Positions 31,501 to 50,548 of a stretch of DNA of 64,000 bases are shown here, piece by piece. Positions within the stretch are counted from its first letter, which is position 1, and every line of letters starts with the position of its first letter. Both the position numbers and the translations under genes were made by a program. Source of the DNA: Nitrososphaerales archaeon (GTDB lineage Archaea; Thermoproteota; Nitrososphaeria; Nitrososphaerales; JACPRH01); assembly GCA_030745655.1 (NCBI GenBank), contig JASLOE010000002.1, forward strand, positions 38,761 to 102,760, in the 5' to 3' direction. The notes under the pieces are model-generated. The model was not told the origin of the DNA. It did no database searches and saw only the letters and a list, made by a program, of their open reading frames with translations.

Positions 31501-33092
31501 AGTTAGACGAAGACGATATTCAAGAGATTCTAAGGTCTGAAGAAGAACGATTTATTGTTGTTGGCATATCGATGAATGCTCCACATAAACTGAGTTTTAT
31601 TAGCATTATTCAATATCATTTAGAAGTTGTTTCAGAACTAAACATACCTTTAGGAAGCGGATGGTATGATGAAGGTGTCACAGCAATTATTGAGGTTCAA
31701 TCGATATCAAAGTATGATAACCAAACTCGACACGTATTTGTATCTTGGAGTGGTGATATAGTATCTGATGAATCAAGCACTACAATTGTTATGAATTCTC
31801 CAATGAAAGCAGAGGCGCAATGGAAAACTCAATACTTTTTTCAGATAAAGTCACGTCTTGATTCTTTTGAGGGTGGTGGATGGTATGATCGAGGTAGTCA
31901 AGCTATTTTCAGAGTTATTGCACCTGTTGAGTGGACAAATAATACTAGAAGCATTTTCACAGGTTGGTCTGGGTTTTTTCAAGGTGATTCCATTGAAGGG
32001 TCAATAATAATCGATTTTCCAACAGTAGTGGAAGCAAATTGGAGAACACAATATCTCTTAGAAGTACTTTCAAGTTTTGGAGAAATATCAGGTGGTGGAT
32101 GGTATAATCGTGGTGAGTTGGTATCTCTTCAGGTTCCAGAAAAAATAGAGCATGAAAATTTTACTCGCCATGTTCCATCTGGTTGGATGGGAGATATAAT
32201 TACAGATGATATGATTGTTGTATTATCCATAACTGAACCATTTCTAGTAGAAGTGAATTGGAGAACCCAATATTATTTAGAAGTAAAATCCAGTATTGGA
32301 GAAACAGATGGTGATGATTGGTATGACCGTGGTGAAATAGCGCATTTTAGTGTTCAATCAGAAATAGATTGGGGAAATCAGACCAGAAGCGTATTTCTAA
32401 AATGGATTGGAGATGTTGAGCTAGTTGAACCTGAAGGTTCATTGATGATCTTATCTCCACAGAAAATATTGGCTCTATGGAAAATTCAATATCTTACTTC
32501 TTTAGTTTTTTTAGATAATGATGCCAATATGGAGATTCTCCCTTCATCAGTTCAATTAATTGGTAGAAACGGTGGAAAGGTTATTCTGCAGGATTTCAAT
32601 TCAATTTGGTTTGATGATCAAGATTTTTCAATTAATGAAATATTGTGGATGGGTGTTGATGTAAAGCAGACAGGGATTCAACCTTTCTTAATTTCTGAAC
32701 CGGGTGAATTGAGAATTCTAACCGAAACATATCCACTTCGAATTATTGTTAGAGACCTTCTTTCTTTTCCTGTATCAGGTGCAAGTATTTTCACTGAATT
32801 TGCTAATGGAACCATTGTCCAAGGGTTTACAGACCAGGCTGGTGAAATCCAATATTCCTTGATCCCTCTTGGTGATTATTCATCCACAATAAAGACATTC
32901 GGGCAGAATGTAAATGTGATTGGAGATGCAAGTATTAATGATGAGTTGAATGTAATGATATCTGTTAGTTTACCAATTTTTATATTGATTGGAGTTTCAA
33001 TAAGCTCAGCGATTGGTGCTTATTATATGGTAAAAATAAGGAAGAATCCGAAAAGGTTCTTAATGATTTCTTTTAGAATTATGTTGAACTAA
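28560..33092 (+). CDS. giant secreted subtilisin-like (S8) serine protease with many repeated beta-rich modules and C-terminal TM anchor
   Basis: It has a signal peptide and the catalytic triad D171 (VAVIDGG, 29070), H204 (AHGTAC, 29169) and S474 (GTSAAAPHVAG, 29979). About 9-10 repeats of a ~75-aa module follow, then a CarboxypepD_reg-like segment and a terminal helix. Confidence 0.85.
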   Translation: MLHISKSITFFNNRFLILCLILFLLSTIVFLPISAYTKSYSNIQNLSSLNYHTETDLGNPKIEYKLSKMLSDSEENEVMVSIELDSDYVLHSGLLEVSGFRVHRFYDNLVQGNIDPKNIEIIADLPFVNFVHEPIRSFGYNTISEGVSFLKADIAQSIGQTGSGAKVAVIDGGFNISNIEISQNIQEFRSFRFDDSIEGDNPAHGTACAEIIVDVAPDVELYLFTIDTDLDFISAVNYAVSLGVDIISISVGFYNLGAYDGSSSVSEVLELARNSGVLPITAAGNEANKHWSGVFSDSDLDDWHNFDVNDETNSFDLDEGETVIIYLSWNDWISRTQDYDIYLYKDGEPDLELVDYSNNRQSGFRRPTESIFYTADSTDTYHISIFRDSANINVMFDLYILGGSNREYIVSSGSISNVPDSKGSLSVGALNWVTGDLESFSSRGPTADGRLKPDITGPDGVSTTSYSGGFFGTSAAAPHVAGIAALIVGSNPSISANALASIIESTAVDLGDQGKDNLYGSGKAEAKYLTLDVSPRIVSIIAGNDIISPQFLPRQFLVDDSVQTISLSTISVTEDDSRFVFKKWSDGSISPVVELFFDGTWTNKVAEFNEQYLLTIQSQYGNPVSEDWFDGGAQASFSISPFFDHGNGTRRVFTSWTGAVTGSNPSASIIMNSPKVVSTQWKKQYELVIESPDQSSTGQGWYDSGSMASFSVIEESVSTNDTRRVFKRWSGDFIGSNLSGTILMNSPKTIESIWDAQYLLSIDAPHQAAFVSGGWFNQEEIVMISGKNIWNNVLNSTRSVIQSILIDENEVTEARTNADNFSLVIIMDQPHKVQIIEGLQFFFDISGGNNVEFEPPSPTRDSWWDNGQSIMVSTDNVWRIINGDSRLNLMAYTLDGNYVEISRSNASRFNSPEFLMNGPRSFHFISVNQYLFDIEGGHQVQSTLSPTSDYWFDAGAIIDVSSQSFWYLDQEGSRIILGHWQLDEDDIQEILRSEEERFIVVGISMNAPHKLSFISIIQYHLEVVSELNIPLGSGWYDEGVTAIIEVQSISKYDNQTRHVFVSWSGDIVSDESSTTIVMNSPMKAEAQWKTQYFFQIKSRLDSFEGGGWYDRGSQAIFRVIAPVEWTNNTRSIFTGWSGFFQGDSIEGSIIIDFPTVVEANWRTQYLLEVLSSFGEISGGGWYNRGELVSLQVPEKIEHENFTRHVPSGWMGDIITDDMIVVLSITEPFLVEVNWRTQYYLEVKSSIGETDGDDWYDRGEIAHFSVQSEIDWGNQTRSVFLKWIGDVELVEPEGSLMILSPQKILALWKIQYLTSLVFLDNDANMEILPSSVQLIGRNGGKVILQDFNSIWFDDQDFSINEILWMGVDVKQTGIQPFLISEPGELRILTETYPLRIIVRDLLSFPVSGASIFTEFANGTIVQGFTDQAGEIQYSLIPLGDYSSTIKTFGQNVNVIGDASINDELNVMISVSLPIFILIGVSISSAIGAYYMVKIRKNPKRFLMISFRIMLN
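30381..32495 (+). repeat. intragenic tandem array of ~75-aa modules (consensus QY.L.v.S..G...G.GWYD.G..a.f.v......TR.vF..WsGd......i.M.sP....a.W..)
   Basis: Protein-level repeats are visible from residue ~608 to 1312. Four well-conserved consecutive copies lie at 31611-32495, with more diverged copies upstream. Confidence 0.6.
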
Positions 33093-33113
33093 GCTTAATT
33101 GGACAGTAATATT

Positions 33114-33704
33114 ATGCAAGATATTGTAGAAAAAACGCTCGAGTTAATGTCTCTTTATGCAAAGAAAGATATTAAGATCCCGGAATCTTTAATAGGAGAT
33201 CTCGGCAAATTTATTATTTGTTCTGAACTTAAACAGAGATTCCCTCAAGCTACTTTGCATTTTAAAGGTGGAACTTATCCCGGTCACGATATTGTCTTAA
33301 ATAAATTAAGAATTCATGTAAAATCGAGGGTAAATCCAGCTCCTAAAAAGACTAAGAGAGGGGAATTAAGGTTTGAAGATTCGCCTAAAATTAGTAAATC
33401 AGTAATTAATGATGAGAAATACAGTATTATCATTTTGATAGTGATCTATACACAAGAGGATTATTCGAAAATTCTTGATCAGAATATATATATTTTTGAT
33501 AAAAAAGATTTCAGGTTTTTCTCTACTGTAAATTTTCGGTCTGGAAAAAGTAAACGTGATTTCACTATCATTAATATTCTTCGTATGACTGGTTCATTGA
33601 CTCCAAAAAATCAGGTAATTTTCGATCATTATAGTGCAAATGAATATCCTGCACTTTTTAGAAACTCTAAGGATAATTGGCAAAAAATATCTTATGAACT
33701 ATGA
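33114..33704 (+). CDS. hypothetical protein with PD-(D/E)XK-like core
   Basis: The arrangement GDLGKFIICSELK...GHDIVLNKLRIHVKS gives an E / D / h-V-K pattern typical of restriction-endonuclease-fold proteins. Motif-level only. Confidence 0.4.
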   Translation: MQDIVEKTLELMSLYAKKDIKIPESLIGDLGKFIICSELKQRFPQATLHFKGGTYPGHDIVLNKLRIHVKSRVNPAPKKTKRGELRFEDSPKISKSVINDEKYSIIILIVIYTQEDYSKILDQNIYIFDKKDFRFFSTVNFRSGKSKRDFTIINILRMTGSLTPKNQVIFDHYSANEYPALFRNSKDNWQKISYEL

Positions 33705-33974
33705 GAAATACTGATATGTTTCAATTCTTTTTTCATATTTTTAAATAAAATCAACTTGTAGATTCAGATCGTTTCAAAAAATATGAGGTCACTTATAAAA
33801 CGGAGGGGATTCCACAGAATATTTGGGCAACGATTATTTTTGTTGCATATACTGAAAGAAAGAATTTCATTATTGGTGACATACTGATTGTGGTGAGGGT
33901 CAACTCGGTATGTTTGCAAGGATAACCATTGAAACACTATAACACTATCGTTTGCAGATTAAACAGATGATGTC

Positions 33975-34452
33975 TTATTCTTGGCTGGATGTATGTATCA
34001 GAAGTTCCACAAGAGCCTCAATTTCACTTGTAGTTAGTGGTTTATCTTGTAAAACAAGTCTCATCGTCACGGATGATGGTTCTGATCCATTCAGATAATT
34101 TGTGAGTAGTTCTTTATCCCCTTTGAAATCTGGTATATCCTGAAACCAGTTTGGAGGCTTAAGAAAAGCTACTGATAAATCTGGACCTATATTAACTCCG
34201 CTAATCCCCATTGATGTGAGGCTGTGGCAATCACTACAAGGAATCCCTTGATTAGATAGTGGTTGATCTCCATTAAAATATGAAAGTCCAGTATCAACAA
34301 GAGCTTGTAGATTGGCTTCTTCTTGCTCAATATTTGAAAGTTCATCTTGCTCATTGTATGGAGATAATGCAAAAATTGCAGTAACCCCAACTATGAAAGC
34401 TATAATTATGCCAATGATAATGTAATTGTTTATCTTAGAGAACTTCTTTCAC
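33975..34452 (-). CDS. membrane-anchored class I (monohaem) c-type cytochrome; N-terminus disrupted or non-canonically initiated
   Basis: Own translation is open from 34448: KKFSKINNYIIIGIIIAFIVGVTAIFALS...NQGIPCSDCHSLTSMGISGVNIGPDLS...SSVTMRLVLQDKPLTTSEIEALVELL. The CxxCH lies at 34224-34238, followed by GPDL and a distal Met. There is no ATG/GTG/TTG in frame before the TM helix. A GTG at 34452-34450 is one nucleotide out of frame. The track splits this gene into 33975-34211 plus a wrong-frame ORF. Confidence 0.6.
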
Positions 34453-34645
34453 CTATCCTAGATAATTAGAAATTTCCATATAATATTAATGACTGCATTA
34501 AAATTAGTTATTTTACCTTGTACATATTATTACAAGCTTAGACTAATTGTTGTTTAATTGATGGGTATGGTAAGTGTTCTCCAATGCATGTTCTAAGTTC
34601 TTCTCTAGTTAAAATAGTCATTTCCAGCAAATAAAGAAAATCTTC

Positions 34646-34667
34646 TCAAATTTAAACTTTCAAAACT
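34646..34667 (+). promoter_or_regulatory. 22-nt motif TCAAATTTAAACTTTCAAAACT, copy 1 (about 100 nt upstream of the UvrD-nuclease gene)
   Basis: It is identical to 38459-38480. It contains a TATA-like TTTAAA and is followed by a related CGAAAAC / CGAAAC. Confidence 0.5.
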
Positions 34668-34746
34668 TCGAAAACGTAATTGAACTGTAAAATATTAAAA
34701 CTGAAAAAAGATAAATAACATCTAGAGTTTTTTTCTATTTAGATCT

Positions 34747-37740
34747 ATGAGTCAAATTGCCCTAAATAATGATTTGAATCCGCAGCAGAAAGAAGCTGTA
34801 TTCACTTCAGAAGGGCCTACTATTATCATTGCTGGAGCAGGAAGTGGAAAAACAAGAGTTGTTACAAACAAAATAATTAATCTAATCAATAATGGAATTA
34901 ACCCAGAAAATATTCTTGCATTGACATTTACTGATAAAGCAGCAGCTGAAATGTACGACAGAATTTATGAGATCGTAGCAATTCATAGTGATCTAACAGT
35001 TTCTACATTTCATTCATTCTGCAAGGAAATTATTTCGGAGAATATCATTGATTTAAAACTTAATGCTAATTTCAAAATAATGGAAAGTACTGTTCAGTTA
35101 GTCTGGTTTATAAAAAATATTGATTCTTTTGGGATGGAATTTGTTGAAGTGGGTAATCAACCAACTACTCTTGTAAATGGAATAATGAAAACAATCTCGA
35201 AATTCAAAGATGAATGTATTTCAGTTGAAAAACTCGAAAAATATCTCATTCAAAAAGATTCTGAAGATTTAGATGACGAAACCCAAGAACAGATTAATTA
35301 TTTAAAAGATATTTTTAAAGCTTACAAATCTTATGAGATTTACAAATCAAAAAATAATATGATTGATTTCGGAGATATGCTCTTTAAGATATGCGAATTG
35401 CTAAAGAGCAAGCCACTTATTCTTAAGAAATATCAAAATAGATTCAAGTATATTCTTGTAGATGAATTCCAGGACACTAATTATGTCCAGCTCCAGATTG
35501 TTAATTTACTTGCTTGTGAACATAAGAATATCACAGTAGTTGGAGATGATGATCAGAGTATCTATCGTTTCAGAGGAGCATATTTAACAAATATCGCTGA
35601 ATTTAAGAGGTTATATCCAAAATATAAAGAGATATTTTTAGAGCAAAATTATAGGAGTACTAAAAAAATTCTTAATGTGGCGAATCAACTTATTTCAAAT
35701 AAACCGGATAGAATCACAAAGAAATTATTCACTGAGAATGACGATGGTGATTATGTGGTTATTGCAGAATGTAAAACAGATGAAGATCAAGCAAATTATC
35801 TTTTAAAGGAGATTAACAAGTTAACAAAGGACAATGAGTTCAACGATATTGCAATTTTAACGAGAGCAAAAAAAGATGTACAACCGATTATTGAATTATT
35901 TGATAAACACAAAATTCCATATGAATTTGTAGGGAATTTAAATTTCTTTAAAGAGCCTATTGTTAAAGATATTATTGCATATATGAGGTTGGCCTTAGAT
36001 CCAATTAATGCAAATGCGGAGGTCGTACGAATACTTAATCGAGATGTATTTGCTATAACACCTACTGAGATAGGTAAATTCTCACGATTTGCACATTATA
36101 AAAAGATAAGTCTTTTCGAGGCGTTCAATAGTTTAAAATACATAGCTGTAAATGAGAATAAATTTACTTATGTGAAGAACAAAATCAACGAATTAATAAG
36201 TTCTAAAACAAAACTGAAACTTAATGAGTTCATTGATAAAATATTATTTGAACTCGATTTTTACAAATATGAGGTAAGTATTGGTAATGAAAGAAATCTT
36301 GCTTTGTTAAATCAATTCCATAAGTTAGCCATAGATTATCACAAATTATATGATAAAGATGAGCTAGATAGCCTTGTTGAGTTTATCGAATATGCCTCAA
36401 ATTTTGAGGTTAAGGAGCATTATGAACCAATAAAAAATGTAGTTCAAATTATGACGATACACACTGCTAAAGGTAAAGAATTCCCAATTGTATTCATACC
36501 CAATTTAGTTAAAGGAAAATTTCCTCCTAGAAATAGAAGTGATAAATTTGTGATTCCTAACGACTTGAGTGATGAAATTAAAACTAATTTAGATGAAAAG
36601 GAAATCCGTATCCAGGAAGAAAGAAGATTATTCTATGTGGCAATAACAAGAGCTGAAAAAAGACTTTACCTGACTTATGCATTGCGATATGGTGGTAATG
36701 TAAAAGATTCAATAGTAAGTCCATATCTTGAAGAAATAGAATATCAAAATAATGTTAACTCTAAATTCAAAGAAATAGAACTGGACCCTATTGAAATAAA
36801 AGAAGAATCTGTTAAAGAACAAATTAAACAAAAATTCATCAAAGAAATAATATCTGATTTAATTAGAACTGATTACGCGAAAATTATCCCAAAAATTATG
36901 ATTTTAGATAAGGTTGAAGGGAATGATCCGAAAGATCTCTTGAAAGTAACAGAGCCTGAGTATGAAGATATACTTACGCAAATTAAGAATGATGAATTGG
37001 ATATAGAAAAAGAATTGGATAAAGAACCAACTTTTTCAGTTTCTCAGTTTAATACATACAATAGATGTCCCAGGGTCTATAAATATAGCTATGTATACAA
37101 AATTCCAAGCCCATCTAAATCATATTTTGATTTTGGAGGAACAATTCATTCAGTAATAAGAGATTTATCAAAGAAGATTAATGATGAAGAAAAAGTTGGC
37201 ATAAATGTAGCATTAGAATTGCTTGAGGCCCATTGGCAGAATGAAGGATACACTACTGAACTTGCAGAAAAACAAGCAAAAGATGAAGCAAAAAGTATTC
37301 TCAAGTCCTTCTTAGTCGAACAATCAAAGATGACCTCAGAAATAGTGGGTATAGAAAAAAAATTCACTATTTCAATTGATGGTCATGCTGTACTAGGATT
37401 TATTGATAGAATCGATAAAGAAGGTGATGATTACACAATTATTGACTATAAAACTGCTAAAACTTCTTTATCAGAAAATAAGTTAAGAGAAGATTTTCAA
37501 CTCTTAACATATGATATGGCAGTTCAGACTTTATTTGGGAAAAGGCCTAAGAAAGTTGGTTTATGGTTCTTGAGAACAAACAAAAAAGTTATGATAGAAC
37601 CAAAAGATGAAGATATTGAGAAAATTAAAATTCAAATCCTGAAAACAATCGAAGGAATTATGGGGGAAAATTTTGAGCCTACTCCAGGTTGGGTTTGCAA
37701 AAATTGTGATTATAAATTAATTTGTGATGCACAGAAATAG
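34747..37740 (+). CDS. UvrD/PcrA-type SF1 helicase fused to a C-terminal Cas4-type Fe-S PD-(D/E)XK nuclease (AddA/AddB-like hybrid)
   Basis: Helicase motifs are AGAGSGKT, LTFTDKAAAEM, VDEFQDTN, VGDDDQSIYRFRGA, QNYRST, IHTAKGKEFP and EERRLFYVAITRAE. Nuclease motifs are NRCPRVYKY, GGTIH, IDRID...IIDYKT, QLLTY and CKNCDYKLIC. Confidence 0.85.
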   Translation: MSQIALNNDLNPQQKEAVFTSEGPTIIIAGAGSGKTRVVTNKIINLINNGINPENILALTFTDKAAAEMYDRIYEIVAIHSDLTVSTFHSFCKEIISENIIDLKLNANFKIMESTVQLVWFIKNIDSFGMEFVEVGNQPTTLVNGIMKTISKFKDECISVEKLEKYLIQKDSEDLDDETQEQINYLKDIFKAYKSYEIYKSKNNMIDFGDMLFKICELLKSKPLILKKYQNRFKYILVDEFQDTNYVQLQIVNLLACEHKNITVVGDDDQSIYRFRGAYLTNIAEFKRLYPKYKEIFLEQNYRSTKKILNVANQLISNKPDRITKKLFTENDDGDYVVIAECKTDEDQANYLLKEINKLTKDNEFNDIAILTRAKKDVQPIIELFDKHKIPYEFVGNLNFFKEPIVKDIIAYMRLALDPINANAEVVRILNRDVFAITPTEIGKFSRFAHYKKISLFEAFNSLKYIAVNENKFTYVKNKINELISSKTKLKLNEFIDKILFELDFYKYEVSIGNERNLALLNQFHKLAIDYHKLYDKDELDSLVEFIEYASNFEVKEHYEPIKNVVQIMTIHTAKGKEFPIVFIPNLVKGKFPPRNRSDKFVIPNDLSDEIKTNLDEKEIRIQEERRLFYVAITRAEKRLYLTYALRYGGNVKDSIVSPYLEEIEYQNNVNSKFKEIELDPIEIKEESVKEQIKQKFIKEIISDLIRTDYAKIIPKIMILDKVEGNDPKDLLKVTEPEYEDILTQIKNDELDIEKELDKEPTFSVSQFNTYNRCPRVYKYSYVYKIPSPSKSYFDFGGTIHSVIRDLSKKINDEEKVGINVALELLEAHWQNEGYTTELAEKQAKDEAKSILKSFLVEQSKMTSEIVGIEKKFTISIDGHAVLGFIDRIDKEGDDYTIIDYKTAKTSLSENKLREDFQLLTYDMAVQTLFGKRPKKVGLWFLRTNKKVMIEPKDEDIEKIKIQILKTIEGIMGENFEPTPGWVCKNCDYKLICDAQK

Positions 37741-37782
37741 TATAAATTGTTGGATGTAGCCATTTAGAGAGTGATGAAATAA

Positions 37783-38448
37783 ATGATTGAAACTGGATAT
37801 GATTTAATTCCTAAGCCTATTCTGGAATATGTGAAAAATAGAAATAAAAAAAGACCAATAATTCCTCACAAATATCATGTCTCAAGTATAGTTGGTTGTT
37901 TAGTTAAAGAATATTATAGAAGAACAATAGGTGGAGAGATAATTGCTATTCCAGCTCTTCTTAATATGCTCAGAGGAACACTTTTTGATGAAGTATTCAC
38001 ACCATTATTTGAAAAGAATCAGAAAAGATATGATGTAACTAGAGGAAAAATTACTTTGACAGGGCAATATGATTTTGTTTGGGATGGAAGTTTATGGGAT
38101 TTGAAGATACCTAAATCGGTTTTTTTTAGAAAAGAGTCTGGTGCAGGACCCCATTATATCAATCAAGGAAAAACGTATTTGGCTTTTGCACATTATCATG
38201 GAGATTTATTAGATGTAAATAAAATACGAATATTGATGATAGCAGGTGACGGAGTTGTTCGTGAAACAGTTGAAGGGGACGATGAAAATATAATGAATAC
38301 TATGTTTGCTAGGGCTTCTGCTGTAGATGAGGATTTAGCTAGAAAAAAGATTAAAAATATTCTTCAATTCTCTGTTCCTGAAGAATCTTGGGAGTGTGGT
38401 TCACAAATCTGTTTTTACGGAGAGATGTGTCCATATAAAAAAAATTGA
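37783..38448 (+). CDS. Cas4/AddB-nuclease-like PD-(D/E)XK protein with C-terminal Cys cluster
   Basis: It has SSIVGCLVKEYY, RGTLFDE, YDFVWDGSLWDLK, NQGKTY and a C-terminal ECGSQICFYGEMCPY. It begins 42 nt after the helicase-nuclease gene. Confidence 0.65.
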   Translation: MIETGYDLIPKPILEYVKNRNKKRPIIPHKYHVSSIVGCLVKEYYRRTIGGEIIAIPALLNMLRGTLFDEVFTPLFEKNQKRYDVTRGKITLTGQYDFVWDGSLWDLKIPKSVFFRKESGAGPHYINQGKTYLAFAHYHGDLLDVNKIRILMIAGDGVVRETVEGDDENIMNTMFARASAVDEDLARKKIKNILQFSVPEESWECGSQICFYGEMCPYKKN

Positions 38449-38458
38449 TAAAATAATA

Positions 38459-38480
38459 TCAAATTTAAACTTTCAAAACT
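38459..38480 (+). promoter_or_regulatory. 22-nt motif TCAAATTTAAACTTTCAAAACT, copy 2 (about 95-115 nt upstream of the beta-CASP gene)
   Basis: An exact 22/22 repeat of 34646-34667 in the same orientation and at a similar distance from the downstream start. Confidence 0.5.
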
Positions 38481-38573
38481 GCACGAAACACTATTTTGCT
38501 CCATTCATCAAGTGTCTTCAATTCTGTTTTTTTGTATAAACATATTATGTAGTTTTTGTTGTTGTTGGTTACT

Positions 38574-39968
38574 ATGAATGTTAAGTTGTTGGGTGGAGAT
38601 GGGGAGATTGGTGGAAACAAAATTCTTGTTGAGCATAAAGGCACTAGGATTTTTCTGGATTTCGGTATGAGTTTTAAGCAGGCTGGAAAGTTTTTTTCTG
38701 AGTATGTTCAGCCGCGTAAATGTTCATCTTTACAAGATTTTTTTGAGATGGGTTTGTTGCCTGAGTTGGATGGAGTTTACCGAGAAGATTATCTTAAACA
38801 TATGGGTAAACAAAAAGAGAAGAGAAGTATTGATGGTGTTTTCTTAAGTCATGCGCATGCAGACCATGCATGGTATATCCATTTTTTGAGGATTGATATA
38901 CCAATTTTTTGTAGTAAAACAACAAAGGTTATTCTTCAGGTGTTAGAGGAGACAGGTAGCGGCTCGATTTCTGACCTAGTTTCTGCTTGCGATACTTTCG
39001 TTTTTTATCGAAACAACAAAGGTGAATTAAAAAGGGCTTCCAGAAAAAAGAGTGAGTTTGTTCATGATCGAGATTTCACGATATTGGAGCCTGGAAAGAA
39101 AGTGTCTGTAGGGACTTTGGAGGTTGAGATGGTTCCTGTTGATCATTCATTGCCTGGTGCATGTGGGTACATTGTTTATTCTGATGAAGGGAACCTTGTT
39201 TATACTGGTGACATCCGGTTTCATGGTTCACATCAGAAGCTTAGTGAAGATTTTGTTGTGAAAGCAAAACAAGCAAAACCAAAAATTTTGATTTCTGAGG
39301 GGACAAGAATAGATACTGACAAGAAAGATAGTGAAGCAGGAGTTAAAGCAAAGATTTCTGATCTTATTTCTGATGCTGAGGGGTTGGTGTTTGTTGAACA
39401 TCCTGTGAGGGATTTGGATAGAATAAATACAATGTATGAGTCAGCGAAAGCTAATGGTAGGGAGTTTGTGGCTAATCTTAAGCTTGCTTATCTTGTTCAA
39501 AGTTTAGGGGATCTTTGTCCGTTTAAGTTAGATGATGTTAAGATTCTTGTTCCGAAGAAGAGTTGGGGTCTAATTGGTAAAGAAGATATTGATCCTGATC
39601 TTATTGAACAAGATTACAATAAATGGGAAAGAGACTTTATAGACAGAGACAACTCAATAATTTACAGTGAACTTAAAGAGAATCCCAGTAAATATGTTGT
39701 CTCTATGAGTATGTGGGAAATAAACCAGTTATCCGACATAAATCCAAAGAACGCTGTATGGATCAAATCATCATGTGAACCATTCGATGAAGAAATGAAG
39801 ATAGATGAAAAACGAAAAAAGAATTGGTTAAGACACTACAAAATCAAAGAATATTCTGCTCACGCATCAGGGCACGCATCAGGTGACAAAATAAGGGAAA
39901 TGATCAAGGAAATAAACCCTGAGAAGGTAATTCCCATCCACACAGAAAACCCTGAAATGTATAATTAA
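38574..39968 (+). CDS. metallo-beta-lactamase / beta-CASP family nuclease
   Basis: MBL motifs are FLDFG, SHAHADHAWY, PVDHSLPGA and YTGDIRF. Beta-CASP motifs are A (LISEGTR), B (HASGHAS) and C (IPIHTE). The track ORF starts at TTG 38556; ATG 38574 gives MNVKLLGGDGEIGGNKILVE. Confidence 0.75.
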   Translation: MNVKLLGGDGEIGGNKILVEHKGTRIFLDFGMSFKQAGKFFSEYVQPRKCSSLQDFFEMGLLPELDGVYREDYLKHMGKQKEKRSIDGVFLSHAHADHAWYIHFLRIDIPIFCSKTTKVILQVLEETGSGSISDLVSACDTFVFYRNNKGELKRASRKKSEFVHDRDFTILEPGKKVSVGTLEVEMVPVDHSLPGACGYIVYSDEGNLVYTGDIRFHGSHQKLSEDFVVKAKQAKPKILISEGTRIDTDKKDSEAGVKAKISDLISDAEGLVFVEHPVRDLDRINTMYESAKANGREFVANLKLAYLVQSLGDLCPFKLDDVKILVPKKSWGLIGKEDIDPDLIEQDYNKWERDFIDRDNSIIYSELKENPSKYVVSMSMWEINQLSDINPKNAVWIKSSCEPFDEEMKIDEKRKKNWLRHYKIKEYSAHASGHASGDKIREMIKEINPEKVIPIHTENPEMYN

Positions 39969-40130
39969 TTGTTTTTATTCATCTCGGTATTGGTTCAAGA
40001 ATATGATTATATCATACATTTGTATGATTAATGATTTAATATTGAAATTATTACGAATAACGGAATAAAATTTACTAATTCGTGATGTTATTATGCTGAA
40101 TGAAACATATTTATGTTATAATCATGCTAT

Positions 40131-40433
40131 ATGTTAAGAAATTCTTTGACTAATACTATTATTGTTAAGCGGAGGCCTTTGGAACATTATTTTTTATCTA
40201 TTTTCTCTCTTATTCTTAATGAAGAAAAAGAAATAATTCTTAAATCATATGGAAGTTCAATAGGAACAGCCATCGATATTGTTAATCTTCTGACTGGGAA
40301 AATCCTTCCAAATTTCTTCAATGTTACCTTAGAGTCCTCAATTAGCAATATTGATGTATTTGGAGGGAATCTTGATATGAACAAGTCGAGTAATAAAATA
40401 TCTGTTATTAAAATAATATTAAAAGTGAGATAA
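40131..40433 (+). CDS. divergent Alba-like nucleic-acid-binding protein
   Basis: 100 aa. The pattern NTIIVKRRPLEHY...EEKEIILKSYGSSIGTAIDIVNLL...ISVIKIILKV follows the Alba layout (K..P...Y ... e-i-l-k-G-..I..A-i-d-i-v). It is a divergent member. Confidence 0.5.
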   Translation: MLRNSLTNTIIVKRRPLEHYFLSIFSLILNEEKEIILKSYGSSIGTAIDIVNLLTGKILPNFFNVTLESSISNIDVFGGNLDMNKSSNKISVIKIILKVR

Positions 40434-41462
40434 ATGGAAATAATTGATATTTGTACACTTGAAACATTGCTTAGTGCAGTGCAAATAAGAAATAAAACTT
40501 TGAATCTTTTCACCACTATTGGCTCTGAAGATATACAACTTTGCTCAATAAATCTAGATGATAACGAACTCAAAGTTAATGAAGAACTCTTAATTACGGA
40601 AGTAAATGATAAGAGATCAAGACTTCTTTCAGATAGTAATTCTAGAATGGTTAACGCATTAATGAGGTCTGCTCTCTTGAAACCTAATTTAAATAAATTC
40701 AGATTGCAAATTTCTCAGTGGGATGATGTTATTTTTGGGTTAGACACAAATATATTTTATACATGTACAATTACTTCATCTATTCTTGATGATTTACTAA
40801 AAATTCCATCCGGTGATTTTATTGATACTCCTGATTGGATGACTTTTGTGTTTAGCAAGGTGGGTATGGGAGAGATAGAAAATAGGGCTGGTCATTCTCA
40901 TAATCCAACAAATAGAAGGCAATGTTTAAGGGCCATACAAGAAATTATGATGATAAATAGAAGCAAAGATTTGGAGGGAATCTCATTACTTCTTACAGGT
41001 TCAATCCCACCTGAAATTGATTATTCTACCAGTACAACTAATACAGTTAGAGACTCAACAATTAGGGAACAGTTTAGATCATTCCTAAAAACAATCGATT
41101 TTCATAAAGGAAGCTACTTTCTCACACAAGATTTCAATAGTGCAGTTTTAGCTGAAGCTGAAGGTTTGAAGAGTTTATACATCCAGAAACCTAATCTTCC
41201 AGAACAAGCTATAGATTTTCATACAAGTGACAAAGTTAATGTTTCTGAAGTACTTTACGAGTTGGCAGTATCTTTCCAACCACTTATTCTTAAAATGGAT
41301 GGTCTTGAACTTGAATTCTTTAGTGAATGGTCTGGAAAAAACCTCAATTCTTGGGAAAACTGGATGATGGGAATCAAATGGCGCAAAGACGATATAAAAC
41401 TTAATGAAGAAATCCAAAAACTAAAAAAACAAGAAATCAACCAAAAAATATGTGCCGGTTAG
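40434..41462 (+). CDS. PIN-domain nuclease-like protein with N- and C-terminal extensions
   Basis: The ATG directly follows the Alba-like stop (TAAATG). The four acidic positions are spaced as in PIN domains: FGLDTNIF (D104), GEIEN (E147), VRDSTI (D207) and LTQDFN (D233). Confidence 0.5.
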   Translation: MEIIDICTLETLLSAVQIRNKTLNLFTTIGSEDIQLCSINLDDNELKVNEELLITEVNDKRSRLLSDSNSRMVNALMRSALLKPNLNKFRLQISQWDDVIFGLDTNIFYTCTITSSILDDLLKIPSGDFIDTPDWMTFVFSKVGMGEIENRAGHSHNPTNRRQCLRAIQEIMMINRSKDLEGISLLLTGSIPPEIDYSTSTTNTVRDSTIREQFRSFLKTIDFHKGSYFLTQDFNSAVLAEAEGLKSLYIQKPNLPEQAIDFHTSDKVNVSEVLYELAVSFQPLILKMDGLELEFFSEWSGKNLNSWENWMMGIKWRKDDIKLNEEIQKLKKQEINQKICAG

Positions 41463-41637
41463 GATAACTTAAAGAAAAGACATGTACATTGGTTAGAAAA
41501 ATGACGCGAAATAAGTGGGAATTATTAAAAAAATATGTGATTGGAAAGCGTTGAAAGTTTCTTTAGATGCTGATATAATCCATGAATAAACTAGTGGTTC
41601 ATTTTAGGAATCTTCTCTTTTTGTGATTTGAAGGAAA

Positions 41638-42978
41638 ATGACAGTTTCCTTTGATGAATTGGAAAAAATTAAGCCTTTATTGAGAGAATATGTTGAGCAA
41701 AGTCCAAAGAGTGTTGAACGCCAATGGGAGTCTCCCATTGAGATTTCACAGCGTCCTTTTCATCGTTATGCTGGAAAGGAGAGCCAGAAGATTGCTCATT
41801 TTTTACTTATGTTTGCTGCAGTTGACACGGCAGAGCTTGTTACAATGCCTGAAAATGCAAGAGCCTTACTGAAGTACCTTTATGGTTCTTTAAGTGATGA
41901 CTATTTTAAACCGAGTCAAATTGACCTCTTCAGTAAGCATATTCAAGACTTTAGCAATCACTATAATCTAGGTTCATCATATGAGCAAATTCCGGAAATT
42001 CTTGATTCAATAAACCATTTTGTTCAAGAGAATGCGAAAGGAGACCTAGTCAGTTATGCAAAGAAGTTTGCTACACCTGAAGAAATGGTAAAAGAAGTTG
42101 GTAATAATATTCCATACATAGGAGGATCACGCCTTGATCATGTACGGATGTACATGCGATGGATGGTGCGGGCCCCTCCTGATCTTGAGATTTTCAAAAA
42201 CTTTTCAAGTAAACAACTGCAGATTCCACTTACATCATTTATGCGAAACATTGCAGTCTGTCTAGGTATATGCTCAAAAGCAATTGCTGATTGGGATCAC
42301 CCTCAGGAAATTGATCAAGAAAGAAAACGGCTAACACAGTTTGCATTAGAACTTTTTCCAGAAGACCCTGCAAAAATTGATTACCCATTCTTTATGTTAG
42401 GCAGATGGATTAGAGACCAAAACTTGAGTTTGCAATTCCTGAGAAACTGGCTTCAATTCCTAAAAAAAACATATGTCAAACTTCAAAGACCTCCAATCAC
42501 GTTCAATGCTTCCAAGATACGACAAGAATCTACTTTTGAAAAAAGAGTAAGAGAAGAACTTGAAAAATTTCAGTTCATGTTTTCATTTGAACCGCTCAAA
42601 TTCACTTTGTCAAATAAAAAGGGAGAACCGCAGAACTATACCCCTGACTTCATTCTACCTCGATGTCGAAAACAAAGAAAAATAGTCATATTAGAACCTC
42701 ACGGAATCTGGACACCTAAACAAAAAAGGAAGTTCCAATTAGGTAGTAAGACTTCCTACTTTTGGGCTTTTCCTTCAGAGATAAATATTGATGAGATAAA
42801 GTTTGTCAACAAACTTCGTTTATTTATGAAACTGTATAGTAAAATGTATTACTCAATTCTTATAGTCCCATCCGATGTAAAATACCGGGTTGAAAACTAT
42901 CCAAACATATGCAATGAAATATATGAAGGTGAAGACATACCAAAAATGCTTTTTGATTTACAGAAGAATATGAAATAA
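41638..42978 (+). CDS. fusion of a DUF2400 (TIGR02757)-like, HhH-glycosylase-related domain with a C-terminal PD-(D/E)XK-like domain
   Basis: The N-terminal ~270 aa reads RMYMRWMVRAPPDLEIFKNFSSKQLQIPLTSFMRNIAVCLGI...ADWDHP...LFPEDPAKIDYPFFMLGRW. This matches my recollection of the DUF2400 signature (FLRWMVR...PLDTHv...LgL...DP.KyDfaLf.lG). The C-terminal part has FEKRVREELE...YTPDFILP...IVILEPHGIW. Confidence 0.5.
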   Translation: MTVSFDELEKIKPLLREYVEQSPKSVERQWESPIEISQRPFHRYAGKESQKIAHFLLMFAAVDTAELVTMPENARALLKYLYGSLSDDYFKPSQIDLFSKHIQDFSNHYNLGSSYEQIPEILDSINHFVQENAKGDLVSYAKKFATPEEMVKEVGNNIPYIGGSRLDHVRMYMRWMVRAPPDLEIFKNFSSKQLQIPLTSFMRNIAVCLGICSKAIADWDHPQEIDQERKRLTQFALELFPEDPAKIDYPFFMLGRWIRDQNLSLQFLRNWLQFLKKTYVKLQRPPITFNASKIRQESTFEKRVREELEKFQFMFSFEPLKFTLSNKKGEPQNYTPDFILPRCRKQRKIVILEPHGIWTPKQKRKFQLGSKTSYFWAFPSEINIDEIKFVNKLRLFMKLYSKMYYSILIVPSDVKYRVENYPNICNEIYEGEDIPKMLFDLQKNMK

Positions 42979-43229
42979 ATTTTACGTGCTATTATCAATC
43001 ACCTACATTTTCTTCGTCTGGTTGGTGTATATTATCAAAATATTGTACTATCTTCTTTTTCTAGAAAAAAGTAAGTATTATTTTCTTTTAAAGTCTGGAT
43101 AATTTTGGTTCTTATTGTTTTTCGCTATTTTGATATGATGTAACGAAAATATGTGGTTTCATAATATATGTTTAATAATATCCAAAGATTTTATTTAATT
43201 CTAATTTGAATGCTCCTCCTTCTAAAGAA

Positions 43230-44201
43230 ATGAAGTTAGAAATTAGCTTAAGTGACTCTAGAGCTATAGAAATTGTTGAGAATATTCCTGCTGATAAAAG
43301 AGATGAGGTTATTGAGAAGTATATTATTCTTGGAGAAATGGTGTCTTCTCATGCATCAATCACAACACGAAAGGAGGCTGTAGCGGACTTTTTTGAACCA
43401 TTAAACATGGATATGCAAAAACTGTTGACGAATCAACATGCAGAGTTAAACACAGGTATGCGAGAACTGTTGACGAACCAATATACAGAGTTAACGAACC
43501 AGCGTACAGAGTTAAGCACGATAAGAGAGCAATTACAACGTATTATCCCAACAGTAACGACATCTGTTAAGAAAGGCGAAATAACTGTTGATGCTATATT
43601 CCAAAGTCTTCAAGAACGTTTCTTGGACGACTCGTTTGAGGATGTCTCAGCTACTGCAAAGTATTCAGATATTCTTGCAACTACAAGTACAAAGACTCCC
43701 GTATTGATAGAAATCAAAGATTACAAGAATAAAGTTCCTTCTGATGAGATTGATAAATTTTGGAGAGATTTAGAGAGACGTGGCGCCCGTTACGGGATAT
43801 TTGTTTCGATGCATTCTGGGATAACAAAGTGCTCTGGTTCAATTAATATTAAGACTGAAATGAATAGAACTGCCGTATTTGTTGTTAACTGTGAATTAAA
43901 TTGGGTTGGACATATTTTTGCTTTTCAGATGATTAAGAAATTATCAGAAATAGAGTCTGTAAAGAAGAAGGAACTTAAAGGCCAAGAACTAGGTAACGTC
44001 ATAACAAAAATAAATAGTAAGTGCAAGCAACTTCAAAAAGACGTAGAAATTCTCAATGAAATTACTCAAATTGCAGATCGTCTCAAAACATCCAATACAA
44101 ACAAACTTGATGAACTTATAGATCTTGCGAATAAACACAAAAGATCTCTCAATGAACAGATTGAAGAAATACTTGATGAAATAAAGAATGTGGAATTATG
44201 A
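43230..44201 (+). CDS. coiled-coil protein with central restriction-endonuclease-like (D...E-I-K) core, RmuC-like architecture
   Basis: It has a repetitive LLTNQ.AEL region, then SDILATTSTKTPVLIEIKDYKNKVPSDEIDKF...YGIFVS, and a C-terminal coiled coil. The track ORF starts at TTG 43206. Confidence 0.45.
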   Translation: MKLEISLSDSRAIEIVENIPADKRDEVIEKYIILGEMVSSHASITTRKEAVADFFEPLNMDMQKLLTNQHAELNTGMRELLTNQYTELTNQRTELSTIREQLQRIIPTVTTSVKKGEITVDAIFQSLQERFLDDSFEDVSATAKYSDILATTSTKTPVLIEIKDYKNKVPSDEIDKFWRDLERRGARYGIFVSMHSGITKCSGSINIKTEMNRTAVFVVNCELNWVGHIFAFQMIKKLSEIESVKKKELKGQELGNVITKINSKCKQLQKDVEILNEITQIADRLKTSNTNKLDELIDLANKHKRSLNEQIEEILDEIKNVEL

Positions 44202-44255
44202 TCAATACATTCCAATAAAGTAAAATGAAAAGCGTCTAAAGAAAAAATTACATAT

Positions 44256-44714
44256 TTGGTGATTATTTTTAGAGAATACGAAAAATACGAAAAGTTAGGA
44301 ATTTCAATAAATGAACTTATCTCAATAAATGAAATGTTGAAAATTCCTGAGAATAAAAATACTTCTAATGCGACAGAGAAACGGAAAAAATATGTTGAAG
44401 AGGCAATATCATGGAAATGCGGAAAAGACCAACAAAACAGAATAATCACGATTGTTTATGATATTGATGGACATGGAACAGCTGTTGCAGTGGGAAAGCC
44501 AGGCAAAGAAGCAGATAAAAATTATAAGGGATTTAGAAATTATAAAACAGGATTGAAAGGAAATAATCCTAATGATATGAATCCGCATATTTTACTCCAA
44601 CATTATAGTCTGGATCTGCAAAAATACAATCAAATTTCTCACCTTTTTTTATCAACTTGGGCATTACATCTAAAACATCTCCACAGATTACACCATCTAA
44701 CATTTCATCTCTGA
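44256..44714 (+). CDS. hypothetical ORF; only the first ~105 codons look protein-like
   Basis: The N-terminal part (EYEKYEKLGISINEL...IVYDIDGHGTAVAVGKPGKEADKNYKGF) has plausible composition. The 3' third is antisense to the methyltransferase fragment and is probably not coding. Confidence 0.25.
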   Translation: MVIIFREYEKYEKLGISINELISINEMLKIPENKNTSNATEKRKKYVEEAISWKCGKDQQNRIITIVYDIDGHGTAVAVGKPGKEADKNYKGFRNYKTGLKGNNPNDMNPHILLQHYSLDLQKYNQISHLFLSTWALHLKHLHRLHHLTFHL

Positions 44715-44766
44715 TTCTTTGAATATCTGTAGTTTTCGAACCTTGTTTTGACATGTTTATCAGCAA
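44569..44766 (-). pseudogene. N-terminal fragment of an N6/N4 DNA methyltransferase (truncated after motif IV)
   Basis: The 65-aa ORF contains ...DGVICGDVLDVMPKLIKKGEKFDCIFADPDYNVGVKY. This is the GD...l..lp...vDli.tDPPYN layout with DPPY changed to DPDY. A stop follows 9 codons later, and none of the three downstream frames continues a methylase. Confidence 0.55.
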
Positions 44767-45052
44767 ATTAGTTAATGAACATCTTAATGTCTCTGGAATA
44801 TGTTATTAAGTTTCTTTCATAAACGTTAAGTGAACTATTTATGTAACACTATTCATAACAAGGATAATAATAAGTCAAAATAATGAATAATGCAAAAGAA
44901 TCTTATAATTTAATCTTAATGAAAAATAAACCACTAAAATATCTTCTTCTAAAAACGCTTTAATCAAGGTTTTTCAGTGTTCTAAAACTTGTACAGTTAG
45001 TTCTAATCACTGGTTTAATACCTTAATCTATGTATGCATATTGCGGCGGTAA

Positions 45053-49430: not shown

Positions 49431-49904
49431 GTGGAAAAATGGGAAATAGCCTTAGGTTCAACTCTAGCTGCTCTATATATTATTCTTGTAGTGGGACTAG
49501 GTCCACTTAGTTATCTCCAGATTCAGTTCCGTGCAGCCAACATACTTCTAGGTATAATTCCTATAGCAGGCCTTCCTGCAGTCTTCGGAATTACATTAGG
49601 TGTTTTAGTGGGTAACATATCGAGTCCACTTGGACCAATTGATATGCTAAGTGTAATTCCAACATTCTTCGGATGTTTAACAATATATTATTTGAGAAAA
49701 GTAAGTGTTTTAGCTGGACTTACAGTGTACACTGTAATAATATCACTTTGGGTTGCATTCATACTTCAATATGTACTGGGTCTTCCTTACTTGATCACTT
49801 TTCTCTATCTACTTATTGGAGTAGGTGTGGTAACAATAGGTTTAGGCTACATACTTTATAAAACACTCCTCAAATTTGGAGGCGAGAAACTATGGCATCG
49901 ATAG
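49431..49904 (+). CDS. queT: queuosine/archaeosine precursor transporter QueT-like membrane protein
   Basis: 157 aa with 5 TM helices. LQIQFRAANILLG...GNISSPLGPIDMLSVIPTF resembles the QueT (DUF988) pattern. It overlaps queC by 13 nt. Confidence 0.6.
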   Translation: MEKWEIALGSTLAALYIILVVGLGPLSYLQIQFRAANILLGIIPIAGLPAVFGITLGVLVGNISSPLGPIDMLSVIPTFFGCLTIYYLRKVSVLAGLTVYTVIISLWVAFILQYVLGLPYLITFLYLLIGVGVVTIGLGYILYKTLLKFGGEKLWHR

Positions 49905-50548
49905 AGAAAATTGTTTTAGTTTTATCTGGAGGAGCGGACAGTAGCACATTAGCATACTTGACCAAGTCTCAAGGACACGACATTTATCCAATCAGTTTCA
50001 ACTACGGTCAGATTGCAAGCAAAGAAACCAATAGTGCAGAAATAATCGCTAAAAATTTAGGGACAACAGCAAAAGTGATAGATGTATCCACTCTAAAACA
50101 GATATTTGGAGGGTCAACTGTCCTTATGGACAAAAGCATGGCTATGCCAGCCCAATTCGAAAGCAAAGTAATTGTCCCATTCAGAAATGCCATCTTTCTA
50201 TCAATAGCCGTAGCATACGCAATCACAATTGGAGCAAAAAAAATAATTTATGGTGCTCACAAATCTGATTCACCATTCTACCCAGACTGCAGAAAAGAGT
50301 TTGTTGATGCATTTCAGGACGCAGCAAAACTCGGAACAGATGAAGATATTACAATTGAGAACCCATTCTATAACTTCTCAAAGGCAGATATAATTCGAAA
50401 AGGTACGACTCTAAAAGTACCATATGAAATTACATGGAGTTGCTACTTAGAAGAAGAGCAGCACTGTGGAGCATGTGAATCGTGCAACAACAGAAAGAAT
50501 GCATTCAAAGAAGCGCAAATATCTGACCCAACTAAATATTCAACTTAA
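49892..50548 (+). CDS. queC: 7-cyano-7-deazaguanine (preQ0) synthase
   Basis: It has the PP-loop LVLSGGADSS and the C-terminal zinc site SCY...HCGACESCNNRKNAF. Confidence 0.9.
   Translation: MASIEKIVLVLSGGADSSTLAYLTKSQGHDIYPISFNYGQIASKETNSAEIIAKNLGTTAKVIDVSTLKQIFGGSTVLMDKSMAMPAQFESKVIVPFRNAIFLSIAVAYAITIGAKKIIYGAHKSDSPFYPDCRKEFVDAFQDAAKLGTDEDITIENPFYNFSKADIIRKGTTLKVPYEITWSCYLEEEQHCGACESCNNRKNAFKEAQISDPTKYST

Follow-up and report, generated by a model that had tools for sequence, protein, structure and literature searches.

Gene Content of the Locus

The window analyzed here is a stretch of 64,000 nucleotides of an archaeal genome assembly (GenBank GCA_030745655.1, contig JASLOE010000002.1, positions 38,761 to 102,760 of the forward strand), and our subject is the block of nuclease genes between 33.1 and 44.8 kb within it (Table 1). 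The window belongs to a marine Nitrosopumilales archaeon, an ammonia oxidizer. Contigs with proteins identical to those of the window come from marine metagenomes, and the closest genome relatives of its UvrD-type protein are found in Nitrosopumilales, Nitrososphaerota, and Bathyarchaeia. With a guanine-plus-cytosine (GC) content of ~35%, the window is a low-GC chromosome segment. A first-pass annotation of the sequence had described the block as an island of nuclease and helicase domains and as a candidate undescribed system. The nuclease-related open reading frames (ORFs) lie where it placed them, all on the + strand, and a run of seven consecutive genes for nucleases, helicases, or nucleic-acid-binding proteins is far above chance expectation. 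The block is a mosaic of four or more gene cassettes, each able to move on its own. We regard the region as probably a strain-variable, defense-island-like recombination hotspot with several self-contained nucleic-acid-targeting cassettes, not one system. Its novel content is two conserved, uncharacterized pairs: a beta-CASP nuclease with a DUF2400-nuclease, and an Alba-like protein with a PIN-like protein.

Seven of the earlier domain calls held (UvrD-Cas4, solo Cas4, beta-CASP nuclease, Alba, PIN-like protein, DUF2400-nuclease, and Mrr-type protein), whereas a nuclease and a cytochrome c called at the left edge were not confirmed, and a methyltransferase stub at the right edge is a weak match. 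No tRNA, Rfam match, CRISPR array, or cas gene was found within the window, and no integrase, tRNA, capsid, or replication gene occurs in the 33-45 kb region.

Table 1. Features of the nuclease-gene block, in window coordinates. The GC of the other window genes is 0.364 +/- 0.028.
Feature	Position	Strand	Basis or remark	GC
201-aa ORF, function not assigned	33099..33704	+	constant flank, adjoins S8 protease gene	
Stop-to-stop frame of 157 codons, transmembrane helix and one CSDCH motif	33975..34448	-	earlier called cytochrome c	
Direct repeat, left copy, 39 nt	34629..34667	+	bounds the UvrD-Cas4 and Cas4 insertion/deletion	
UvrD (superfamily 1, SF1) helicase fused to Cas4-type Fe-S PD-(D/E)XK nuclease	34747..37740	+	UvrD-helicase, UvrD_C, PDDEXK_1	0.298
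Stand-alone Cas4-family nuclease, 221 aa	37783..38448	+	widened family profile	0.321
Direct repeat, right copy, 39 nt	38442..38480	+	about 94 nt upstream of the MBL start codon	
Beta-CASP metallo-beta-lactamase (MBL) nuclease	38574..39968	+	Lactamase_B_2 and RMMBL; HxHxDH, SAHAS (motif B), IPIHTE (motif C with His)	0.370
Divergent Alba-like nucleic-acid-binding protein	40131..40433	+	Alba 29.9 bits, cut-off 25; abuts PIN-like gene	0.277
PIN-like nuclease with extra N- and C-terminal domains, 342 aa	40434..41462	+	motifs, AlphaFold model, Foldseek	0.327
DUF2400 domain fused to T7-endonuclease-I-like PD-(D/E)XK domain	41638..42978	+	carries YTPDF...ILEPH	0.360
Mrr_cat-type nuclease core (D...EIK)	43206..44201	+	Mrr_cat 25.4 bits, cut-off 21, residues 154-204	0.348
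152-aa ORF, function not assigned	44256..44714	+	first ~108 codons conserved in L048; tail antisense into methyltransferase stub	
65-codon stub resembling N6/N4 DNA methyltransferase N-terminus	44569..44766	-	39-residue alignment	

Mosaic Structure among Close Relatives

Nucleotide comparison of the window with contigs from close relatives separated a resident core from two inserts. The core consists of the beta-CASP nuclease, the DUF2400-endonuclease, the Mrr-type nuclease, and the 152-aa ORF, in that order. A 3.8-kb insert with the UvrD-Cas4 and solo Cas4 genes, carrying 39-nt direct repeats at its ends, lies just upstream of the beta-CASP gene, and a 1.6-kb insert with the Alba and PIN-like genes splits the beta-CASP/DUF2400 pair. 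Stubs of lost genes occur at the junctions, and ordinary cellular genes form the flanks.

Contig L047, with 96% nucleotide identity to the window (92-98% over three aligned blocks), carries the S8 protease gene, the 201-aa ORF, the CXXCH gene, the MBL gene, and the DUF2400 gene as an uninterrupted series and lacks window positions 34669-38441 (UvrD-Cas4 and Cas4) and 39957-41564 (Alba and PIN-like). Its junction between the MBL and DUF2400 genes recurs in L046, from another sample. In L048, whose DUF2400 protein is 87% identical to that of the window, the order is MBL, DUF2400, Mrr, and 152-aa ORF. Contigs L035 and L036 (85% nucleotide identity over the Alba/PIN-like cassette) have the order Alba, PIN-like, beta-propeller and lack positions 41503-44868, and L036 has an Mrr gene and a PC4-like gene placed upstream. 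Also upstream of Alba in L036 are two stubs, a 52-codon ORF (1546-1704) that corresponds to the C-terminus of a divergent DUF2400-nuclease and a 60-nt MBL 3' end (1834-1893), which look like scars of earlier cassette loss. L002 is 99.8% identical to the window up to 39956 and then continues into GH92 and glycosyltransferase (GT2) genes that are absent from the window, and several other contigs simply end at the mosaic junctions. Recombination at a single exact site where the MBL gene ends was considered and rejected, as several relatives share 26-37 nt more past 39956 before diverging. The junctions after the MBL gene are close but not identical, which argues for repeated illegitimate or short-homology recombination rather than for one site-specific system.

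Base composition agrees with this mosaic picture. The compositional comparison was made on GC content, and the two inserts are low (0.28-0.33) while the core genes (0.35-0.37) are like the rest of the window. The alignments bear out the expectation that 33.1-44.8 kb is variable accessory DNA, but its genes co-occur only as sub-blocks.

The 39-nt direct repeat has 22 nt in exact agreement and contains a TATA-like TTTAAA. Nowhere else in the window is the exact 22-mer present, with 0.01 chance matches expected. In both copies, TTTAAA lies about 80-95 nt upstream of a start codon, that of UvrD-Cas4 on the left and that of MBL on the right, and the repeat is probably the MBL promoter region, duplicated. 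L047 has one copy and joins 34668 to 38442.

The Beta-CASP Nuclease and DUF2400-Nuclease Pair

The complete beta-CASP MBL nuclease annotated at 38574 was confirmed by its MBL and RMMBL profiles and by beta-CASP motifs, which read HAHADH, SAHAS, and IPIHTE in the sequence; we take this motif assignment to follow the published beta-CASP definition. Its closest solved relative is EF2904 (structural genomics, 2az4). The protein is weakly RNase J-like (TIGR00649, 92.7 against a cut-off of 400) and scores 29.8 against the aCPSF1 model TIGR03675 (cut-off 580).

The call of a DUF2400-like domain fused to a PD-(D/E)XK-like domain at 41638 also proved sound, with a DUF2400 profile match and a C-terminal T7-endonuclease-I match. 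The DUF2400 model (predicted local distance difference test score, pLDDT, 86.8) has an HhH-GPD glycosylase fold. It matches DUF2419, the Methanocaldococcus jannaschii 8-oxoguanine glycosylase (Ogg), hOGG1, and EndoIII at a probability of about 1.0, the nearest being the queuine-salvage enzyme DUF2419, ahead of archaeal and human OGG and of EndoIII, with Foldseek E values of 6e-5 for DUF2419 and 2e-3 for the M. jannaschii enzyme. D243 and D248 are invariant in the family alignment. For the C-terminal domain, the profile search gave endonuclease I structures at E 1e-3 and phrog_945 at E 4e-8. The domain has a conserved YTPDF, its second motif is E-P-H rather than E-x-K, and K392 is invariant elsewhere. 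DUF2400 is a family with almost no literature, and a literature search on it returned nothing useful.

To assess linkage of the two genes, we took about 19 distinct lineages with a DUF2400 protein of 42% identity or more and a sufficiently long upstream flank. In about 10 of them, this upstream flank holds an MBL orthologue (41-94% identity) at a distance of 94 bp to 3.6 kb from the DUF2400-nuclease gene. In L063, a different beta-CASP protein of 603 aa lies 106 bp upstream, for a total of about 11 of about 19. The pair spans Nitrososphaeria and Bathyarchaeia; it is arranged in tandem in Nitrosopumilales and is often divergent, with a HAD hydrolase gene between the two, in other Nitrososphaeria and in Bathyarchaeia. 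As judged from these gene neighborhoods, the association is a real linkage and the two genes are a resident pair. A more distant clade of 416-aa DUF2400-nucleases, and some others, stand alone. Neighbors of the pair include defense-type genes, namely GmrSD, an Mrr_cat/NA-iREase1 protein, and HEPN in L042; TIR, Cas1 fragments, and an integrase in L037; and RmuC and an integrase in L040.

In the window, QueT and QueC (7-deazaguanine precursor transport and synthesis) are encoded at 49431-50548, 5-6 kb downstream of the DUF2400-nuclease gene. A connection between these genes and the queuine-salvage-like fold was considered and set aside. There are no Que genes near the MBL/DUF2400 pair in other lineages, so the proximity is probably a coincidence.

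The Alba and PIN-like Pair

The annotated Alba-like gene at 40131, followed by a PIN gene at 40434, was supported by an Alba profile score above the cut-off and by motifs, a structural model, and Foldseek for the PIN-like protein. In relatives where the two proteins are fused, the Alba domain gives a match to Sso10b/Alba structures (E 1e-7). The PIN-like protein has no Pfam match, and GLDTN, EIE, and TxD are invariant in its family. Its AlphaFold model (pLDDT 86.9, predicted template modeling score 0.88) has its best Foldseek match in SiRe_0806 of Sulfolobus islandicus, crystallized with cA4 (E 2e-7, TM 0.48, about 350 columns), followed by the SMG6 PIN domain. A literature search on SiRe_0806 yielded nothing useful.

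The PIN-like family comprises about 30 clusters, and a small Alba-like gene always abuts or overlaps the PIN-like gene upstream; in at least four protein clusters the two form one Alba-PIN fusion protein. Co-occurrence and fusion indicate that the Alba and PIN-like association is a real linkage. Like the window, the Alba-PIN neighborhoods examined outside the hotspot arrangements of L035 and L036 all hold defense-type genes. These sets are a Panacea-domain pair with an SNF2/SMC/Dnd-like cluster; Cas4, SNF2, NOV_C, methyltransferase, PIN, and PLD genes; and ResIII, a large methyltransferase, and UvrD. In the first of these, a Nitrososphaeria genome (L030, 9083-16920), Alba-PIN lies beside a SocA_Panacea gene pair and a cluster encoding a PDDEXK protein, an SNF2 helicase, SMC, a Dnd-associated protein, and PAPS reductase. 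This cluster is a candidate phosphorothioation-type system.

The window allele of the PIN-like gene has a TGG-to-TAG change at 41460-41462, which removes ~13 residues from the C-terminus, among them an L..R motif that is nearly invariant. The near-identical contigs L003 and L004 lack this stop, as do all relatives (355-356 aa), and the window allele is therefore possibly impaired and polymorphic in the population.

The UvrD-Cas4 and Solo Cas4 Genes

The UvrD helicase fused to a Cas4-type Fe-S nuclease at 34747 was borne out by Pfam (UvrD-helicase E 8e-79, UvrD_C E 2e-56, PDDEXK_1 E 6e-37), by the cas4 model TIGR00372 (67.2 bits, cut-off 65), and by its motifs. None of the helicase or nuclease motifs in the sequence is disrupted; GSGKT, DEFQD, and the subsequent helicase motifs can be read. 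The four cysteines C...CxxCx5C are invariant in the family alignment, and CxxCx5C is intact in the window protein. We know of no member of the UvrD-Cas4 family that has been characterized biochemically. PADLOC matched this protein only, with GajB-type or DRT helicase models, and no other ORF.

Orthologues of UvrD-Cas4 have unrelated neighbors. These are SbcCD in two Bathycorpusculum genomes, an AAA_15/DUF3696 ATPase in L008, a PLD-type protein in L012, and type III Mod in L126, where the orthologue (58% identity) lies near the methyltransferase gene on a contig classed as viral. In the two Bathycorpusculum genomes (L010, 4893-9079; L013, 4168-8369), the UvrD-Cas4 orthologue is convergent with an SbcC/SbcD (Rad50/Mre11-like) pair, which hints at a repair role in that lineage. 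In L008 (8027-12958), an AAA_15/AAA_21/DUF3696 ATPase gene and a 144-aa ORF precede the orthologue, a layout that recalls Gabija-type or OLD-type ATPase-helicase pairs by analogy. In L011 (3726-6460) and L012 (10095-12852), the orthologues are split into two to four reading frames and are likely pseudogenes or assembly frameshifts.

The 221-aa protein encoded at 37783 falls below Pfam thresholds alone and was assigned only after its family was widened through an exhaustive HMMER search, which gave 81 representatives forming a small, divergent clade. With the resulting profile, matches to Cas4 structures emerged, namely 4ic1 (E 5e-19) and 4r5q (E 5e-7), and RecB motifs and four cysteines are present, in keeping with the earlier call of a second Cas4-like nuclease. 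Among 35 relatives, PDDEXK_1 is matched by 22 and Cas_Cas4 by 13. In the same set, D97, K108 (in DLK), Y132, C210, and C216 are invariant, and C39, Q128 (QxxxY), and C205 nearly so. The protein also matches phrog_1706. Profile-profile comparisons from small alignments, with the UvrD nuclease domain and with PDDEXK neighbors in L040 and L042, gave no significant link. Homologues with 79-82% identity are encoded alone, with no UvrD gene nearby, one of them beside HNH and N6_N4 methyltransferase genes. An AddB-like role as obligate partner of UvrD-Cas4 was rejected, given these lone homologues and the UvrD-Cas4 orthologues that lack a solo Cas4.

The Mrr-Type Gene, the Edges of the Block, and the Flanks

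The D..EIK nuclease-like, coiled-coil protein annotated at 43230 scores above the Pfam cut-off for Mrr_cat. Its core is flanked by a segment of 15-aa tandem repeats and a coiled-coil tail. The repeat is 45 nt long in the DNA, with 2.1 copies at 43401-43515 (15-aa units, LLTNQ...), and this region varies between strains, because L036 and L048 differ exactly in that segment (299-331 aa). Orthologues at the same hotspot are 78% (L048) and 91% (L036) identical.

The methyltransferase relic proposed at 44569-44766 is a weak match. A stretch of 39 residues aligns with the N-terminus of an N6_N4 methyltransferase at 41% identity (E 0.003), and the motif is a degenerate DPDY in place of DPPY/F. No homology to the rest of such a gene was found downstream of the stub in any frame. 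The match to L048 breaks off within the stub, at 44595; in other relatives, similarity to the window begins again at 44869.

At the left edge, the 201-aa ORF had been called PD-(D/E)XK-like (from 33114). We rejected this assignment, as the ORF has no match in Pfam, NCBIfam, PADLOC, PHROGs, or solved structures. L047, which lacks UvrD-Cas4, keeps the ORF beside the S8 protease gene, and the constant flank by that protease includes the CXXCH gene as well as the ORF. The evidence for an antisense cytochrome c reduces to a single CSDCH motif behind a transmembrane helix. The frame at 33975-34448 has no ATG, GTG, or TTG upstream of CSDCH and no Pfam match; translation from its sole canonical start would yield 78 aa, all past the motif. 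Either the gene uses an unusual start or it has decayed. To our knowledge, heme-c proteins are not expected in ammonia-oxidizing archaea.

The flanking genes are of an ordinary cellular kind, unrelated in function to the block, as had been annotated. They encode citrate synthase, a thioredoxin-domain protein, the S8 protease, beta-propeller proteins, SCO1, QueT/QueC, MoxR/DUF58, transporters, and an XPD-like helicase. The last is XPD/Rad3-like (DEAD_2, Helicase_C_2; 10379-12193, - strand), an ordinary repair gene outside the block. The 3' part of the S8 protease gene (1510 aa) contains diverged 91-nt internal repeats (32026-32116 and 32245-32335, 77% identity), which correspond to ~70-aa repeated modules in the translation.

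Proposed Functions and Alternative Explanations

The cassettes could act at several points on foreign or aberrant nucleic acids. UvrD-Cas4 would unwind and degrade DNA as an accessory helicase-nuclease of restriction-type defense, and the solo Cas4 may be a 5'-3' single-strand DNA exonuclease. The combination of a base-flipping fold, an endonuclease-I-like domain, and a beta-CASP partner suggests recognition of an unusual base followed by cleavage and degradation. The DUF2400 domain would flip out and recognize a modified or damaged base, the fused domain would cut at that base, and the beta-CASP partner would then degrade or trim the cut product, with a HAD phosphatase added in other lineages. 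Alba would provide nucleic-acid binding for a Mg-dependent PIN-like endonuclease, and the Mrr-type protein is a putative modification-dependent nuclease.

We advance only tentatively, as a possibility short of an even chance, that the two conserved modules are previously undescribed archaeal immune or genome-surveillance systems. The beta-CASP/DUF2400 pair, with a HAD phosphatase in some lineages, would then recognize an unusual base (for example, a viral DNA modification of the 7-deazaguanine or another type) and destroy the nucleic acid containing it, and the Alba/PIN-like pair would be an Alba-guided nuclease effector specific to Nitrososphaeria. The two pairs may serve defense or repair; the neighbors of the beta-CASP/DUF2400 pair are of both the defense type and the repair type.

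The earlier description of the block as a defense island holds in that the region is accessory, strain-variable, partly low in GC, and marked by gene stubs, and in that relatives of its genes elsewhere adjoin restriction-modification, Dnd, GmrSD, TIR, HEPN, and toxin-antitoxin genes; it does not hold as a single undescribed multi-gene system. Several observations weigh against a defense-island-like hotspot. All comparison loci are metagenome assemblies, in which an occasional chimeric contig is possible, although the key junctions recur in independent samples. The arrangement lacking UvrD-Cas4 is known from one contig only (L047). No integrase, tRNA, or viral relative was found to explain mobility, and the check with PADLOC, as far as its models go, matched only the generic UvrD core. 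At least 319 clusters make up the broad DUF2400-nuclease family, and many members stand alone among metabolic genes. The MBL/DUF2400 pair of L040 lies near NurA, HerA, and a NucS-like gene. The SbcCD genes adjoining UvrD-Cas4 orthologues in L010 and L013 belong with these points.

The last of these observations lead to accessory DNA repair, rather than immunity, as the function of the block, an explanation that we consider unlikely but the most serious competitor. UvrD-Cas4 and Cas4 would resect double-strand breaks in an AddAB-like manner, and the glycosylase-fold nuclease, the beta-CASP exonuclease, and, elsewhere, the HAD phosphatase would perform lesion excision or crosslink unhooking. Beyond the SbcCD genes, it is favored by the NurA, HerA, NucS_C, and PDDEXK/Exo5 proteins near the MBL/HAD/DUF2400 group in L040, the OGG/EndoIII-like fold of the DUF2400 domain, the wide and partly stand-alone distribution of the DUF2400-nuclease family in Bathyarchaeia, and the host-like GC of the core genes. 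Repair genes fit poorly, however, with presence and absence among strains of 92-99% nucleotide identity, with the decayed MBL and DUF2400 stubs of L036 and the broken UvrD-Cas4 frames of L011 and L012, or with the restriction, TIR, HEPN, or toxin-antitoxin neighbors at most loci. The solo Cas4 is, moreover, unlinked from UvrD-Cas4 in relatives.

It is improbable that the nucleases arrived together on an integrated mobile element or provirus of which the block is what remains. In favor of this are the two low-GC segments, one of them flanked by direct repeats. Integrases lie near DUF2400-nuclease genes in L037 and L040, and one UvrD-Cas4 orthologue sits on a contig classed as viral (L126). Against this, the 33-45 kb region lacks integrase, tRNA, capsid, and replication genes, and the cassettes move separately, not as a unit. 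A viral origin was rejected on the result that IMG/VR contained no relatives of four proteins (Cas4, PIN-like, DUF2400, and MBL); with the UvrD nuclease domain, the viral search returned only generic phage Cas4-like matches and one orthologue.

To the original proposal that the eight genes form one integrated, undescribed defense or processing system we give hardly any credence: the genes share a strand, are tightly packed, and are all nuclease-related, but UvrD-Cas4, solo Cas4, and Alba-PIN are each present without the others in close relatives, with L047 lacking both inserts, L035 and L036 lacking DUF2400 and carrying Mrr on the other side, L002 replacing everything past MBL, and Cas4 homologues standing alone while UvrD-Cas4 orthologues have unrelated neighbors.

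Ammonia-oxidizing archaea are among the most abundant cells in the ocean, are mostly without CRISPR, and have a virus resistance that is little understood. Under our preferred reading of a hotspot with several self-contained modules, this locus would be one at which near-identical strains swap nuclease cassettes. The beta-CASP and DUF2400-nuclease pair would give DUF2400 its first functional context and tie a glycosylase fold to a structure-specific nuclease, and the Alba-PIN pair would extend the role of Alba past chromatin and RNA binding. What looks like one dense run of nuclease genes can consist of several modules that are independent of each other.

Comparison with Known Systems

The block shares parts with several known systems. 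As in AddAB, AdnAB, and RecBCD, a UvrD-like motor fused to a RecB-family nuclease is followed by a second RecB-family nuclease gene. Unlike in those systems, the second protein is 221 aa long, has no helicase-like body, and is unlinked in relatives. There is no large AddB partner (about 1,100 aa) beside the AddA-type gene, and the UvrD-Cas4 protein scores 185 bits against a cut-off of 708 for the AddA equivalog and 162 against 696 for RecB. It differs from Gabija in having no GajA match (OLD-type ATPase-TOPRIM) beside it in PADLOC. The solo Cas4 resembles Cas4 proteins outside CRISPR-cas loci (4ic1, 4r5q) in its RecB-type motifs and four-cysteine cluster, and it differs from the Cas4 of CRISPR adaptation in that the window contains no cas1, cas2, or CRISPR array. 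The Mrr-type protein shares with Mrr (type IV) restriction endonucleases a catalytic core scoring above the Pfam cut-off, but there is no Mrr_N winged-helix DNA-binding match, and a repeat segment and coiled coil occur instead.

CARF-PIN proteins are accessory effectors of type III CRISPR in Sulfolobales, for example ST0035 (PMC6546367). The best structural match of the PIN-like protein, SiRe_0806, binds cA4, although at a TM of only 0.48, and the PIN-like family has no Pfam or sequence match to a CARF domain, with no cas genes in the five neighborhoods seen. The Alba/PIN-like pair resembles VapBC in that a small upstream nucleic-acid-binding gene abuts or overlaps the PIN-like gene and the PIN acidic motifs are invariant. 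In VapBC, however, the PIN toxin is compact (~130 aa), a small antitoxin encoded upstream neutralizes it, and the genes are kept separate, whereas here the protein has 342-355 aa and extra domains, its partner is Alba rather than any known antitoxin fold, and the two are fused in relatives.

The MBL protein is like beta-CASP nucleases (RNase J, aCPSF1/2, EF2904) in its MBL and beta-CASP motifs and RMMBL domain. It is not an orthologue of RNase J or aCPSF1 by score, and its conserved partner is a DNA-type nuclease. The DUF2400 model has the predicted HhH-GPD fold of DUF2419/Qng1 (queuosine-5'-monophosphate glycosylase) and of archaeal and human OGG, but sequence identity is only 11-14%, and DUF2400 has a T7-endonuclease-I-like nuclease as its fusion partner and forms a pair with a beta-CASP protein. 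We know of no description of either arrangement, the DUF2400/endonuclease-I fusion or its pairing with a beta-CASP nuclease.

UvrD-Cas4 fusions are a monophyletic family of bacteria and mesophilic archaea, found mostly beside type III restriction-modification genes and proposed as accessory components of several defense systems (Hudaiberdiev et al. 2017, PMC5704561). Its members (pfam12705 branch) stand alone or in non-conserved defense contexts, and Dcm/Vsr genes also belong to their typical surroundings. In the window, no restriction-modification genes are adjacent and the neighbor is the solo Cas4; among the orthologues, type III Mod lies near that of L126, and others are beside SbcCD or an AAA_15 ATPase. 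An N-terminal SF1 UvrD/PcrA core and a C-terminal Cas4-like domain with four cysteines are both present. Rather than being part of an undescribed system, the window protein fits as a member of this already described family.

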